Assembly: GCF_055900595.2 (NCBI RefSeq)
Contig: NZ_CM148325.1
Length of the DNA stretch: 64,000 nt
Reading direction: 5' to 3' (one strand)
How positions within the stretch are numbered: the first letter of the stretch is position 1; each line of letters starts with the position of its first letter. Shown here one piece after another: positions 6,300 through 63,944 of the stretch. The translations under genes were made by a program, and so were the position numbers. Below the pieces are notes generated by a model. That model ran no database searches. It saw only the letters and a program-made list of their open reading frames with translations, and was not told the origin of the DNA.

Positions 6300-6569
6300 T
6301 TATTTTTTAACGTTAAATTTCTTCTGCCAGACCAGCAGTTCAAATACGCCGAAAAGGAAAATGCGCACCTTTTCGGCGGTGGTCATCTGCGGGCCATCTT
6401 TCGGTAAAGTGGATTTCAACAGCGCCAGCTGCATACCATGCATCAGCACGGTGAAAATCAGCGCCACGTTAACGAAAATATTCAGCGGACGCGGGAAGGG
6501 ATGCACCAGGTTGAGGATTAAAAATCCCCAAACACAGAGCATTAACACACGACCAATATTAATCAGCAT
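6300..6569 (-). CDS. yhhL: Small membrane protein YhhL (DUF1145)
   Basis: 89-aa product from internal Met (MLINIGRVLML...); upstream part of the 130-aa ORF overlaps rsmD and is treated as non-coding. Confidence 0.75.
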   Translation of the reverse strand: MLINIGRVLMLCVWGFLILNLVHPFPRPLNIFVNVALIFTVLMHGMQLALLKSTLPKDGPQMTTAEKVRIFLFGVFELLVWQKKFNVKK

Positions 6570-8845: not shown

Positions 8846-9514
8846 ATGATTCGCTTTGAACATGTCAGCAAGGCTTATCTCGGTGGGAGACAGGCGCTGC
8901 AGGGCGTTACGTTCCATATGCAGCCGGGTGAGATGGCGTTTCTGACCGGTCATTCCGGCGCAGGGAAAAGTACCCTCCTGAAGCTGATCTGTGGGATTGA
9001 GCGGCCCAGCGCCGGGAAAATCTGGTTTAGCGGCCATGACATCACGCGTCTGAAAAACCGTGAAGTTCCGTTTCTGCGCCGCCAGATTGGCATGATTTTC
9101 CAGGATCACCATCTACTGATGGACCGTACTGTCTACGATAACGTGGCGATACCCCTGATTATCGCCGGTGCCAGCGGTGACGATATTCGTCGTCGTGTAT
9201 CGGCGGCGCTGGATAAAGTCGGGCTACTGGACAAAGCGAAGAACTTCCCTATTCAGCTTTCCGGCGGTGAACAACAGCGTGTTGGCATTGCCCGCGCGGT
9301 GGTGAACAAGCCCGCGGTACTGCTGGCGGATGAACCGACCGGTAACCTTGACGACGCGTTGTCAGAAGGAATTCTACGTCTGTTTGAAGAATTTAACCGC
9401 GTTGGGGTAACCGTATTGATGGCAACGCACGACATCAACCTGATTTCGCGGCGTTCCTATCGCATGCTCACCCTGAGCGATGGTCACTTGCATGGAGGCG
9501 TGGGCCATGAATAA
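8846..9514 (+). CDS. ftsE: Cell-division ABC ATPase FtsE
   Basis: Walker [13 protein letters not shown] signature LSGGEQQR, Walker [12 protein letters not shown]. Confidence 0.97.
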
Positions 9515-10565
9515 GCGCGATGCAATCAATCATATCCGGCAGTTTGGCGGGCGTCTGGATCGCTTCCGTAAATCGGTCGGCGGCTCTGGCGACGGCGGTC
9601 GTAACGCGCCGAAACGCGCGAAATCCTCGCCAAAACCGGTAAATCGCAAAACTAACGTTTTCAACGAACAGGTGCGCTATGCTTTCCACGGCGCTTTGCA
9701 GGATCTGAAAAGCAAACCGTTCGCCACGTTTTTAACGGTGATGGTTATCGCCATCTCCCTGACGCTGCCCAGCGTCTGTTATATGGTGTACAAAAACGTT
9801 AATCAGGCGGCGACGCAGTATTATCCGTCACCGCAAATCACCGTTTATCTGCAAAAAACGCTGGACGATGACGCCGCTGCGGGCGTGGTGGCACAGTTGC
9901 AGGCCGAGCAAGGCGTAGAGAAAGTGAATTATCTTTCTCGTGAAGACGCACTGGGGGAGTTCCGTAACTGGTCTGGTTTTGGTGGTGCGCTGGATATGCT
10001 GGAAGAAAACCCGCTTCCGGCAGTGGCGGTGGTAATCCCGAAACTCGATTTTCAGGGGACCGAGTCACTGAATACCTTGCGCGATCGTATCACCCAGATC
10101 AACGGCATTGACGAAGTGCGAATGGATGACAGCTGGTTTGCCCGTCTGGCGGCGTTGACCGGGCTGGTTGGGCGCGTTTCGGCAATGATCGGCGTATTGA
10201 TGGTGGCGGCAGTGTTCCTCGTCATCGGTAACAGTGTGCGTCTGAGCATCTTTGCTCGCCGTGACTCCATTAACGTACAGAAACTGATTGGTGCGACAGA
10301 TGGTTTCATCCTGCGCCCATTCCTGTACGGTGGCGCATTGCTGGGATTTTCTGGCGCATTGCTGTCATTAATTTTGTCGGAAATTCTGGTCCTGCGTTTG
10401 TCTTCGGCGGTTGCGGAAGTGGCGCAGGTTTTCGGAACGAGGTTTGATATCAATGGCTTATCTTTTGATGAATGCCTGCTATTGCTGCTGGTATGCTCGA
10501 TGATTGGCTGGGTGGCAGCCTGGCTTGCCACGGTACAACATTTACGCCACTTTACGCCTGAATAA
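9507..10565 (+). CDS. ftsX: Cell-division ABC permease-like protein FtsX
   Basis: Start at internal Met (MNKRDAINH), 8-nt overlap with ftsE; 4 TM C-terminal domain. Confidence 0.93.
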
Positions 10566-10582
10566 TAAAAGCGTGTTATACT

Positions 10583-10615
10583 CTTTCCCTGCAATGGGTT
10601 CCGTAGCAGGGAAAG
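10583..10615. other. Inverted repeat (10-bp perfect stem, 13-nt loop) downstream of ftsX, no U-tract
   Basis: CTTTCCCTGC ... GCAGGGAAAG. Confidence 0.4.
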
Positions 10616-10689
10616 AGACCCCGTTGTCTCTTCCCGGTATTTCATCTCTATGTCACATTTTGTGCGTAATTTATTCACAGCGTTGCATT

Positions 10690-10716
10690 GAACTTGTGGA
10701 TAAAATCACGGTCTGA
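10690..10716 (+). promoter_or_regulatory. sigma-E dependent rpoH promoter (P3-type)
   Basis: GAACTT -35, 16-bp spacer, TCTGA -10, about 95 bp upstream of the rpoH ATG. Confidence 0.8.
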
Positions 10717-10809
10717 TAAAACAGTGAATGATAACCTCGTTGCTCTTAAGCTCTGGCACAGTTGTTGCTACCACTGAAACGCCAGAAGATATCGATTGAG
10801 AGGATTTGA

Positions 10810-11664
10810 ATGACTGACAAAATGCAAAGTTTAGCTTTAGCCCCAGTTGGCAACCTGGATTCCTACATCCGGGCAGCTAACGCGTGGCCGATGTTGTCGG
10901 CTGACGAGGAGCGGGCGCTGGCTGAAAAGCTGCATTACCATGGCGATCTGGAAGCAGCTAAAACGCTGATCCTGTCTCACCTGCGGTTTGTTGTTCATAT
11001 TGCTCGTAATTATGCGGGCTATGGCCTGCCACAGGCGGATTTGATTCAGGAAGGTAACATCGGCCTGATGAAAGCAGTGCGCCGTTTTAACCCGGAAGTG
11101 GGTGTGCGCCTGGTCTCCTTCGCCGTTCACTGGATCAAAGCAGAGATCCACGAATACGTTCTGCGCAACTGGCGTATCGTCAAAGTTGCGACCACCAAAG
11201 CGCAGCGCAAACTGTTCTTCAACCTGCGTAAAACCAAGCAGCGTCTGGGCTGGTTTAATCAGGATGAAGTCGAAATGGTGGCCCGTGAACTGGGCGTAAC
11301 CAGTAAAGACGTACGTGAGATGGAATCGCGTATGGCGGCACAGGACATGACCTTTGACCTGTCTTCCGATGACGATTCCGACAGCCAGCCGATGGCTCCG
11401 GTGCTCTATCTGCAGGATAAATCGTCCAACTTTGCCGACGGCATTGAAGATGATAACTGGGAAGAGCAGGCGGCAAACCGTCTGACCGACGCGATGCAGG
11501 GCCTGGATGAGCGTAGCCAGGACATTATCCGCGCACGCTGGTTGGACGAAGACAACAAGTCCACGTTGCAGGAACTGGCTGACCGTTACGGTGTTTCCGC
11601 TGAGCGTGTGCGCCAGCTGGAAAAGAACGCGATGAAAAAACTTCGCGCTGCTATTGAAGCGTAA
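10810..11664 (+). CDS. rpoH: RNA polymerase sigma-32 heat-shock sigma factor
   Basis: 284 aa; sigma-70 family regions 2 and 4 (e.g. [19 protein letters not shown]). Confidence 0.97.
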
Positions 11665-11684
11665 TTACCGCTGTTAAGCAGAGA

Positions 11685-11717
11685 ACCCTGGATGAGAGTC
11701 CGGGGTTTTTATTTTTT
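11685..11717 (+). terminator. rpoH intrinsic terminator
   Basis: GC-rich hairpin (ACCCTGGA ... TCCGGGG) followed by TTTTTATTTTTT. Confidence 0.8.
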
Positions 11718-11935
11718 GGGCCTCTGCAATAATCAATGACCCCCTCCGGCAAAACGCCAATCTCCACGCAGATTGTTAATAAACTGTCAAAATAGCTATT
11801 CCAATATCATAAAAATCGGGTATGTTTTAGCAGAGTATGCTGCTAAAGCACGGGTAGTCATGCATAAAACGAAATAAAGTGCTGAACAACAACATCACAA
11901 CACACGTAATAACCAGATGAATGGGGATTCTCAGG

Positions 11936-30304: not shown

Positions 30305-31300
30305 ATGAAAAAGAAAAGACCCGTACTTCAGGATGTGGCTGACCGTGTTGGCGTGACCAAAATGACGGTCAGCCGTTTTTTACGCAACCCGGAGCAGGTT
30401 TCCGTCGCTCTACGTGGCAAGATTGCCGCCGCTCTTGATGAACTGGGTTATATTCCCAATCGCGCACCCGATATCCTCTCTAACGCCACCAGCCGGGCGA
30501 TTGGCGTCCTGTTACCTTCACTCACTAACCAGGTTTTCGCTGAAGTATTACGCGGTATCGAAAGCGTCACCGACGCACACGGTTATCAGACGATGCTGGC
30601 GCACTACGGTTATAAACCGGAAATGGAGCAAGAACGCCTCGAATCAATGCTTTCCTGGAATATCGACGGACTTATTCTCACCGAACGTACCCACACGCCC
30701 CGCACCTTAAAAATGATTGAAGTAGCGGGTATTCCGGTGGTGGAGCTGATGGACAGTAAGTCGCCGTGTCTCGATATCGCCGTCGGTTTTGATAACTTTG
30801 AAGCGGCACGCCAGATGACCACCGCCATTATTGCTCGCGGGCATCGTCACATTGCCTATCTCGGCGCACGCCTCGACGAACGTACTATCATCAAACAGAA
30901 GGGATATGAGCAGGCGATGCTGGATGCAGGCCTGGTGCCGTATAGCGTGATGGTCGAGCAATCTTCTTCTTACTCTTCCGGTATTGAACTGATTCGCCAG
31001 GCGCGGCGGGAATATCCGCAGCTGGATGGCGTATTTTGTACTAATGATGACCTGGCGGTCGGCGCGGCGTTTGAATGTCAGCGTCTGGGGCTGAAAGTTC
31101 CTGACGATATGGCGATTGCCGGTTTCCACGGTCATGACATTGGTCAGGTGATGGAGCCACGGCTGGCGAGCGTGCTGACGCCGCGTGAGCGGATGGGCAG
31201 CATTGGCGCTGAGCGCCTGCTGGCGCGTATTCGTGGCGAATCTGTGACACCGAAAATGTTAGATTTAGGTTTCACCTTGTCACCAGGCGGATCTATTTAA
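30305..31300 (+). CDS. gntR: Gluconate repressor (LacI family)
   Basis: N-terminal HTH (LQDVADRVGVTKMTVSRFL). Confidence 0.95.
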   Translation: MKKKRPVLQDVADRVGVTKMTVSRFLRNPEQVSVALRGKIAAALDELGYIPNRAPDILSNATSRAIGVLLPSLTNQVFAEVLRGIESVTDAHGYQTMLAHYGYKPEMEQERLESMLSWNIDGLILTERTHTPRTLKMIEVAGIPVVELMDSKSPCLDIAVGFDNFEAARQMTTAIIARGHRHIAYLGARLDERTIIKQKGYEQAMLDAGLVPYSVMVEQSSSYSSGIELIRQARREYPQLDGVFCTNDDLAVGAAFECQRLGLKVPDDMAIAGFHGHDIGQVMEPRLASVLTPRERMGSIGAERLLARIRGESVTPKMLDLGFTLSPGGSI

Positions 31301-37716: not shown

Positions 37717-39686
37717 CACAACTCGCCATTGGCAAACCCGCACCCCTCGGCGCGCATTACGACGGTCAGGGCGTCAACTTCACACTTTTCTCCGCTCATG
37801 CCGAGCGGGTAGAACTGTGTATCTTTGACGCCAATGGCCAGGAACATCGCTATGACTTGCCAGGGCACAGTGGCGACATTTGGCACGGTTATCTGCCGGA
37901 TGCGCGCCCGGGTTTGCGTTATGGTTATCGCGTTCATGGCCCCTGGCGACCCGCCGAGGGACATCGCTTTAACCCAGCGAAGTTGTTGATTGATCCTTGC
38001 GCGCGGCAAATTGACGGGGAGTTTAAAGATAACCCGCTGCTGCACGCAGGTCATAATGAACCTGACTATCGCGACAACGCCGCCATTGCGCCGAAATGTG
38101 TAGTGGTGGTTGATCACTATGACTGGGAGGATGATGCCCCGCCGCGCACGCCGTGGGGCAGCACTATCATTTATGAAGCCCATGTCAAAGGATTAACGTA
38201 TCTGCACCCGGAGATCCCCGTCGATATCCGCGGCACTTATAAAGCCCTGGGGCATCCGGTGATGATCAACTATTTGAAACAGTTGGGCATTACTGCGCTG
38301 GAGTTGCTGCCGGTGGCACAATTTGCCAGCGAACCACGCCTGCAACGTATGGGGTTAAGTAACTACTGGGGCTATAACCCGGTAGCGATGTTTGCGCTGC
38401 ATCCGGCGTATGCCTGCTCGCCAGAAACGGCGCTGAATGAGTTTCGCGATGCAATCAAAGCACTGCATAAAGCGGGTATCGAAGTCATTCTTGATATCGT
38501 GCTTAACCATAGTGCGGAACTGGACCTCGACGGTCCGTTATTCTCTCTGCGTGGGATCGACAACCGTAGCTATTATTGGATAAGAGAAGACGGTGATTAT
38601 CACAATTGGACAGGCTGTGGCAACACGCTCAATTTGAGTCATCCGGCGGTGGTGGATTATGCCAGCGCCTGCCTGCGTTATTGGGTAGAAACCTGCCACG
38701 TCGATGGTTTCCGTTTTGATCTGGCGGCAGTCATGGGCCGTACGCCTGAGTTCCGTCAGGATGCGCCGTTGTTTACCGCAATTCAGAACTGCCCGGTGCT
38801 CTCGCAGGTGAAGTTAATTGCCGAACCGTGGGATATTGCGCCTGGTGGTTATCAGGTGGGAAATTTCCCGCCATTGTTTGCTGAGTGGAACGATCATTTC
38901 CGTGATGCTGCCCGTCGTTTCTGGCTGCATTATGATTTGCCTCTGGGGGCGTTTGCCGGGCGTTTTGCTGCCTCCAGCGATGTTTTTAAACGTAATGGTC
39001 GTCTGCCGAGTGCCGCGATTAATCTCGTCACCGCGCATGACGGTTTTACGCTTCGCGACTGCGTTTGCTTCAACCATAAACACAATGAAGCAAACGGAGA
39101 AGAAAATCGCGACGGGACCAACAACAATCACAGTAACAATCATGGTAAAGAAGGATTAGGCGGTACTCTTGACCTGGTTGAACGGCGGCGCGACAGCATT
39201 CACGCCCTGTTAACAACGTTGTTGCTCTCCCAGGGTACGCCGATGTTACTGGCCGGTGACGAACATGGTCATAGCCAGCATGGCAATAACAATGCCTACT
39301 GTCAGGATAATCAATTAACCTGGTTGGACTGGTCGCAGGCAAGCAGTGGTTTAACCGCATTTACCGCCGCGTTAATCCATCTGCGCAAGCGCATTCCCGC
39401 TTTGGTGGAGAATCGCTGGTGGGAAGAAGGCGACGGCAATGTCCGTTGGCTAAATCGATATGCTCAACCTTTAAGCACGGATGAGTGGCAAAACGGGCCG
39501 AAACAGCTGCAAATTCTGCTCTCGGATCGCTTTTTGATCGCAATTAACGCCACGCTTGAGGTAACAGAGATTGTTTTACCTGCTGGGGAGTGGCACGCCA
39601 TTCCCCCATTCGCTGGAGAGGATAACCCAGTGATTACGGCTGTCTGGCAGGGACCTGCACACGGATTGTGTGTGTTCCAGAGATGA
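37713..39686 (+). CDS. glgX: Glycogen debranching enzyme
   Basis: 657 aa; overlaps glgB by 4 nt. Confidence 0.97.
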
Positions 39687-48323: not shown

Positions 48324-48347
48324 CTCAGGTCAGATTGAAATCTGACC
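48324..48347. other. Near-perfect 24-bp palindrome downstream of glpD, no U-tract on either strand
   Basis: CAGGTCAGATT-ga-AATCTGACCTG. Confidence 0.5.
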
Positions 48348-48365
48348 TGGCCACCTTACGTTAAT

Positions 48366-63921: not shown

Positions 63922-63944
63922 TGCCGGATGCGATGCATCCGGCA
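63922..63944. repeat. REP-like palindromic hairpin downstream of malQ
   Basis: TGCCGGATGC-gat-GCATCCGGCA. Confidence 0.7.

Follow-up and report, generated by a model that had tools for sequence, protein, structure and literature searches.

The window analysed here is a stretch of 64,000 nucleotides of Escherichia coli DNA; the parts of the hairpin region, from the P1 -35-like sequence to the C-rich tract past the stem, are given on the + strand. Within it, ftsX ends with a TAA stop codon at positions 10563-10565 (open reading frame 9480-10565, as in the RefSeq annotation of the identical K-12 region) and rpoH begins with the ATG at position 10810. The spacer between the two genes contains an inverted repeat. 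Its 5′ arm (arm A, CTCTTTCCCTGC, 10581-10592) and its 3′ arm (arm B, GCAGGGAAAGAG, 10606-10617) were identified through the repeat itself, through folding and through their covariation. Paired with each other, they form a perfect stem of 12 base-pairs that starts approximately 15 nt past the ftsX stop codon. The segment separating the arms (10593-10605) corresponds to the upper stem and loop, a portion whose length and sequence differ by genus. In the window, it provides four inner pairs (AUGG at 10594-10597 with CCGU at 10601-10604) closed by an apical loop of 3 nt. The original prediction, made from the sequence of the window, had described 10-bp arms (CTTTCCCTGC, 10583-10592, and GCAGGGAAAG, 10606-10615) beginning 18 nt past the ftsX stop codon, in the rpoH upstream region. 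The arms, their distance from the stop codon and the gene order, ftsX then rpoH, were all found as described, except that the stem is actually longer (12 bp).

Folded in isolation, the hairpin has a predicted energy of -24.5 kcal/mol (z = -7.0), and none of 200 shuffled sequences folds as well. It is the sole perfect 12-bp stem with a loop of 20 nt or less in the entire window, where it is also the longest perfect stem; the mean number of perfect 12-bp stems obtained in 100 dinucleotide shuffles is 0.11. The hairpin is a non-chance feature. Seven distinct other perfect stems, 10-11 bp in length, are found in the window, where shuffles predict about one; stems of this length lie at 2868-2892, 6347-6378, 30337-30374, 39062-39096, 48326-48349 and 63922-63944.

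The hairpin is not followed by a U-tract, as already noted in the original prediction: the tail on the 3′ side of the stem reads ACCCCGUUGUCUCUU / ACCCCGUUGUCU, and a pattern scan for terminators covering positions 10400-10900 returned no sites. A search of the 10000-11800 interval with the Rfam 15 covariance models (E <= 1) gave no match over the hairpin.

Overlap with the rpoH P1 promoter

The base of the stem coincides with rpoH P1, the distal sigma-70/sigma-S promoter of the gene. The extended -10 element of P1, TGTTATACT, occupies positions 10574-10582 and includes the hexamer TATACT (10577-10582), whose final CT constitutes the first two bases of the stem (arm A). A -35-like sequence, TTTACG (10551-10556), falls within the last ftsX codons, separated from the hexamer by an unusually long spacer of 20 nt; TTTAC is kept within Phe-Thr codons of ftsX in other genera. 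Transcription from P1 starts 221 nt upstream from the ATG, that is, at position 10589 (10810 - 221, +/-1 nt), which is the ninth base of the 12-base arm A. The -221 start is listed with the class “Known”, 1 nt off the catalogued site, in supplementary file 3 of Mendoza-Vargas 2009 (PMC2760140), where “gcgtGTTATACTcttt” is given as the -10 box and “acgcCACTTTACGcctg” as the -35 box. P1 conforms to the sigma-70 extended -10 pattern, a TGnTATAAT-like element followed at 6-8 nt by a mapped start, and its RNA has been described as the primary one of rpoH in most conditions (PMC3562002). The location originally predicted for the hairpin, between ftsX and the rpoH promoters, must be revised, as the P1 -10 element overlaps the stem base and the P1 start lies within the 5′ arm. 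The DNA in question (TATACT at 10577-10582 and the -221 start) is the same as that of the P1 promoter already known. The accessible literature on P1 is silent on the hairpin, on its conservation and on the presence of a start within its 5′ arm; likewise, the literature surveyed on rpoH, ftsX and terminators (its scope not extending to the classics of the 1980s and 2001) holds no account of the hairpin, of the covariation or of the start in the arm. P1 itself is well known; the architecture, with a promoter that overlaps a hairpin, is modestly interesting.

Since the P1 start is inside arm A, RNA made from P1 is devoid of 8 of the 12 arm A bases and, as a result, the full 12-bp stem can form only in RNA entering from ftsX. 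The structures predicted for the two RNAs differ accordingly. RNA entering from ftsX folds into the hairpin of 12 + 4 bp, while RNA starting at 10589 folds into a small 5′-terminal hairpin (10589-10609, -7.1 kcal/mol) followed by a second hairpin in which the 10609-10619 segment pairs with the 10626-10635 segment (-14.1 kcal/mol). The latter segment, which we call A′ (GTCTCTTCCC, 10626-10635), is a pyrimidine-rich near-copy of arm A, recognizable as an inverted repeat 6-15 nt after the 3′ arm. The second hairpin, B:A′, is possible when arm A is absent.

Conservation and covariation of the stem

Synteny of ftsX and rpoH is widespread in Gammaproteobacteria. The comparison was carried out with a set of 15 genera, comprising E. 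coli, Salmonella, Citrobacter, two Enterobacter, Klebsiella, Kosakonia, Yokenella, Kluyvera, Atlantibacter, Pseudescherichia, Serratia, Yersinia, Erwinia and Hafnia, the spacers of the close relatives being located via their FtsX proteins. The sequence TGnTATAMT is found in all 15, at 8 nt past the ftsX stop codon in 14 and at 18 nt in Erwinia. In every case, a hairpin with a predicted energy of -20 to -26 kcal/mol starts within the last bases of the -10 hexamer, and in none of the 15 is this hairpin followed by a U-tract. The segment between the arms ranges from 10 to 20 nt and its inner pairs are genus-specific. Conservation across enterobacterial rpoH upstream regions, which the original prediction had put forward as a check, is borne out by all 15 genera; the hairpin is absent from Acerihabitans, the one sampled Enterobacterales lineage that lacks it entirely. 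In Acerihabitans arboris (L004, 2286-2340), a P1-like sequence, TGTTATAAT, is found directly past the ftsX stop codon with no comparable hairpin after it. Lack of an evident hairpin in this organism indicates that at least one lineage can do without the element.

Covariation was counted on an ungapped alignment limited to the two arms, MAFFT having misaligned them (CTGCTGC repeats, differences in loop length). In this alignment, arm B was chosen by best complementarity; its homology (GCAGGGAAAG) is obvious. Across the 15 genera, 92.8% of the cells are paired and 9 of the 12 pairs change on both sides, several of the both-sides cells of Hafnia resulting from a matched 1-nt deletion in both arms (7 pairs covary if Hafnia is left out). 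None of 500 shuffles reached these values, and sliding the partner by 1-3 columns brought the paired fraction down to 43-61%. The changes include a U-A to C-G replacement at 10586/10612 in five genera; Pseudescherichia has the same replacement at 10585/10613, and Enterobacter sp. Bisph1 has it at 10584/10614. The reverse, C-G to U-A, is seen in Serratia (10587/10611) and Erwinia (10588/10610). In Serratia and Hafnia, U-G wobbles occur within otherwise perfect stems, at positions where the opposite strand would have C-A mismatches; counting the wobble cells (3 for the sense strand versus 1 for the other) slightly favours RNA of the sense strand. The CTGC/GCAG portion of the stem is nearly invariant across genera.

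The distribution of these changes relative to the promoter is informative. The covarying pairs correspond to columns 8-15 of the alignment, that is, to positions 10581-10588 of the window, upstream from the P1 start at 10589. Moreover, in Kosakonia and Yokenella the stem covers the entire -10 hexamer. Together, these findings place the selection on RNA reading through from ftsYEX. On comparative grounds, then, the hairpin is a sense-strand RNA structure of the ftsYEX read-through transcript, and not primarily an element of the P1 leader.

Some variations on the arrangement were observed around and beyond this set. In Hafnia alvei (L098, ~2340-2360), another TATACT, with a C-run after it, is found approximately 60 nt downstream from the first, as if the -10 element plus the 5′ arm had been partly duplicated. 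The hairpin that Photorhabdus (L003) has at this place is unrelated. In Vibrio, the hairpin found after ftsX (L008, 2350-2377; L009, ~2322-2370) has an A-run and a U-run, and in one of the two loci (L008) a TTGAAA-N16-TATACT match places one promoter hexamer in each hairpin arm, representing a different type of promoter-hairpin overlap. The idea that Vibrio might share the design of a -10 element followed by a terminator was dropped, the promoter hexamers sitting in both arms of the Vibrio hairpin.

Evidence on possible termination in the ftsX-rpoH spacer

Published Term-seq data were used to look for RNA 3′ ends at the hairpin. Coordinates in this data set (PMC7815308) equal 3,611,593 minus the window position, a conversion checked against the printed sequence of the 3′ end found 21 nt upstream from the rpoH ATG. 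The curated lists for LB at OD 0.4, LB at OD 2.0 and M63 include no 3′ end at or near the hairpin (3600968-3601012), no 3′ end numbered 36009xx or 36010xx and no entry naming ftsX (PMC7815308). The hairpin thus yields no abundant, stable 3′ end in the data set. The lists of this one data set show neither a precise 3′ end a few nucleotides past the stem, as an intrinsic terminator would leave, nor a steady-state 3′ end where the stem-loop has its base, as would be left by Rho-type termination. Low abundance of ftsYEX RNA may explain the missing 3′ end, which nonetheless counts against a Rho-type boundary. Among the RNA 3′ ends reported by the same study is a very strong one in LB at both densities, located 19-21 nt upstream from the rpoH ATG (PMC7815308); it maps to positions 10789-10791, inside the rpoH 5′ UTR.

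The sequence that follows the hairpin is C-rich and G-poor. By its base composition, the untranslated tract from 10618 to 10695 is a candidate Rho loading region: the C/G ratio over these 78 nt is 1.67, which places it in the top 3% of windows in the 64 kb, and C exceeds G downstream from the hairpin in all 15 genera. A stable stem-loop without U-tract at the end of the transcription unit, with a C-rich, G-poor (rut-like) tract downstream, is the anatomy of a Rho-dependent 3′ end. According to Dar and Sorek (2018, PMC6061677), such ends carry stable stem-loops without U-rich tails, which block 3′ exonucleases, and have rut sites immediately downstream. In addition, bicyclomycin treatment led to a Rho region being called at ~10723 (score 1.92, p = 1e-11, from 800-nt windows; PMC7815308, supplementary file 2). 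At this resolution, transcripts reading through from ftsX are inseparable from P1 leader transcripts, and the call could reflect the action of Rho on the long P1 leader or a bicyclomycin-induced rise in rpoH transcription. The case for Rho-type termination is made up of the C-rich tract, the ~10723 call, low in resolution owing to the 800-nt windows, and the anatomy described in PMC6061677.

The hairpin as a proposed boundary element of ftsYEX

We favour an interpretation that in our estimation has about an even chance of being correct, namely that ftsYEX has a Rho-type terminator whose boundary and protective stem-loop is this hairpin, and that the location of the P1 start in its 5′ arm exempts rpoH transcripts. 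In RNA reading through from ftsX, the hairpin would form about 15 nt past the stop codon and mark the 3′ boundary of the ftsYEX unit. Having no U-tract, it would not act as a classical intrinsic terminator. Rho would load on the C-rich untranslated tract just 3′ of the hairpin and terminate transcription before rpoH, and the hairpin would block 3′-to-5′ exonucleases, or pause the polymerase, so as to fix and stabilise the end of ftsYEX mRNA. Transcripts made from P1, without 8 of the 12 bases of arm A, would escape, folding as the 5′-terminal hairpin plus the pairing between arm B and A′. The element is most likely neither a classical intrinsic terminator nor a protein-binding site. This interpretation retains one part of the original prediction, which envisaged a partial terminator insulating rpoH from ftsYEX read-through: the covariation upstream from the P1 start assigns the structure to RNA entering from ftsX. 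The other part, termination at the hairpin, finds no counterpart among the Term-seq 3′ ends of the three conditions.

The hairpin resembles the stem-loops at Rho-dependent 3′ ends, as characterized in PMC6061677, in being stable, in lying past the end of a gene without a U-rich tail and in having a C-rich tract downstream. It differs from that class, as described, in that an active promoter (-10 element and start) shares the 5′ arm and in having no steady-state 3′ end in the PMC7815308 data. The region upstream from rpoH, the gene that sets the heat-shock sigma factor level, is among the most studied regulatory regions of E. coli. If the conserved structure belongs to incoming ftsYEX RNA and has bases in common with P1, this would explain the lack of transcriptional cross-talk between a cell-division operon and a stress regulator that lie 244 bp apart, and would illustrate compactly how a promoter can be nested within a boundary element of the operon upstream. 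A modest practical consequence is that reporter or deletion constructs of the rpoH upstream region that are cut at P1 also destroy the structure at the 3′ end of ftsYEX.

Alternative interpretations

The folding predictions suggest that the two classes of transcripts may adopt alternative structures, A:B in read-through RNA and B:A′ in P1 RNA. It is conceivable, though rather unlikely, that these structures amount to a switch set by the start site: RNA from ftsX would fold as A:B, leaving the C-rich tract open to Rho, which would stop it, whereas P1 RNA would fold as B:A′, which would mask the tract and allow transcription to reach rpoH. In keeping with this scenario, the three-part layout (A, B, A′) is conserved, A′ being CTTTTCCTGC-like in most other genera and keeping its position ~20-25 nt upstream from a conserved TGTCACA box. 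The predicted folds are A:B for the read-through RNAs of all genera and B:A′ for the P1-started RNAs of most. Complementarity between B and A′, as duplex energy, exceeds that of composition-matched shuffles in about 10 of the 15 genera (z from -2 to -3.7), and it is maintained although the register of pairing in the E. coli/Salmonella/Citrobacter group differs from that of the other genera. Furthermore, the common variant C10619T, found in about one third of complete E. coli genomes and lying two bases outside the stem, converts a C-G pair of the B:A′ hairpin to U-G and so leaves the pairing intact. The ~10723 Rho call, at the resolution of 800-nt windows, also falls in the spacer. Against the switch, the B:A′ pairing covers only ~10 nt, whereas the C-rich sequence that Rho usually requires for loading is much longer; Kluyvera, Atlantibacter and Yersinia show little or no B:A′ complementarity; and the pyrimidine richness of A′ may have another purpose, such as providing a binding site or contributing to the CRP/CytR region next to it.

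A precedent for this type of control is offered by the E. coli pyrC and pyrD genes, in which the start of a single promoter moves by a few bases and a leader hairpin blocks the ribosome site. As in pyrC/pyrD, hairpin formation in the ftsX-rpoH spacer is set by where transcription starts relative to the 5′ arm. The two situations differ in that here the RNA classes do not share a promoter and 190 nt separate the hairpin from the rpoH ribosome site. Were the switch real, one short sequence would combine a promoter, the terminator of the upstream operon and a device exempting the promoter's own transcripts.

The structure could also be viewed as a 5′-terminal stem-loop of rpoH P1 mRNA that shields the RNA from 5′-end-dependent decay or tunes the leader, with no relation to ftsX. 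Stem-loops at the 5′ terminus are known to stabilise E. coli mRNAs, as in the ompA work. RNA from 10589 does fold from its first nucleotide (CUGC-AUGG...CCGU-GCAG, -7.1 kcal/mol, z = -2.2); the CTGC/GCAG part of the stem that it uses is the nearly invariant one, and the distance between hairpin and -10 element is fixed in all genera. Still, we find this explanation quite improbable. The structure under selection does not lie as a whole within the P1 transcript: 8 of the 12 stem pairs, the covarying ones (10581-10588), are upstream from the mapped start at 10589, where selection cannot act via P1 RNA, and in some genera the stem crosses the -10 hexamer.

A third explanation, by which the hairpin would be a weak or factor-assisted intrinsic terminator, or would stabilise a pause, a few bases past the stem and without Rho, strikes us as decidedly doubtful. 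The element has in common with a canonical intrinsic terminator a strong hairpin directly past the last stop codon of an operon, and its stem-loop is stable and contains G+C (12 + 4 bp, -24.5 kcal/mol). Hairpins after ftsX in Vibrio and Aeromonas have U-rich tails, which suggests an ancestral role in termination. It departs from the canonical type in the three traits reported above, namely the missing U-tract (15 of 15 genera), the negative terminator scan and the empty Term-seq lists, which contain no 3′ end at 10617-10630 (PMC7815308).

The remaining two explanations fare worse. An RNase III site, or a site for another endonuclease, that separates the ftsYEX and rpoH parts of the read-through transcript appears very unlikely. 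A nearly perfect helix of ~16 bp between two cistrons would suit such a role, but typical RNase III substrates are longer than this. In addition, no processed ends are listed nearby in PMC7815308. Finally, a DNA-level element, either the palindromic operator of a dimeric regulator, as the original prediction also proposed, or a cruciform modulating P1, is scarcely tenable: although the repeat overlaps the P1 -10 element and start, a classic operator position, the distance between its arms varies by 10 nt among genera (10-20 nt), at odds with a fixed spacing of half-sites, 9 of 12 positions change on both sides with pairing kept, at odds with half-site conservation, the U-G wobbles of Serratia and Hafnia amount to C-A mismatches on the other strand, and the accessible promoter and binding-site literature reports nothing at the hairpin, the variable spacing and the compensatory changes together excluding a dimeric-regulator palindrome.

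Variation within E. coli and other elements of the spacer

Of 5426 complete E. coli genomes, 5425 gave a match to a 501-nt query around the site, and the genes annotated under the match are ftsX and rpoH. The 10566-10640 segment is identical in 3751 of 5424 E. coli genomes and the stem is essentially invariant within the species. Over positions 10400-10900, only 10 of the 5425 genomes reach or exceed 99% identity to the window, indicating that the strain from which the window derives has a minority allele. Compared with K-12 BW25113, the ftsX-rpoH spacer is the same across the hairpin, and differences are confined to positions 10680-10682 and 10779. The first of these sites, GCG in the window and AGC in K-12, is just upstream from a sigma-E -35 element; at the second, the window has A and K-12 has G. 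The -35 element belongs to a sigma-E type promoter match (GAACTT-N16-TCTGA, 10690-10716), which we take to be the known heat-inducible promoter P3 of rpoH. Further downstream, a match to the -24/-12 sequence of sigma-54 type promoters (TGGCAC-N5-TTGC) is found at 10754-10768, upstream from rpoH; a genomic SELEX study reported an RpoN peak in the rpoH-ftsX spacer (PMC8743547).
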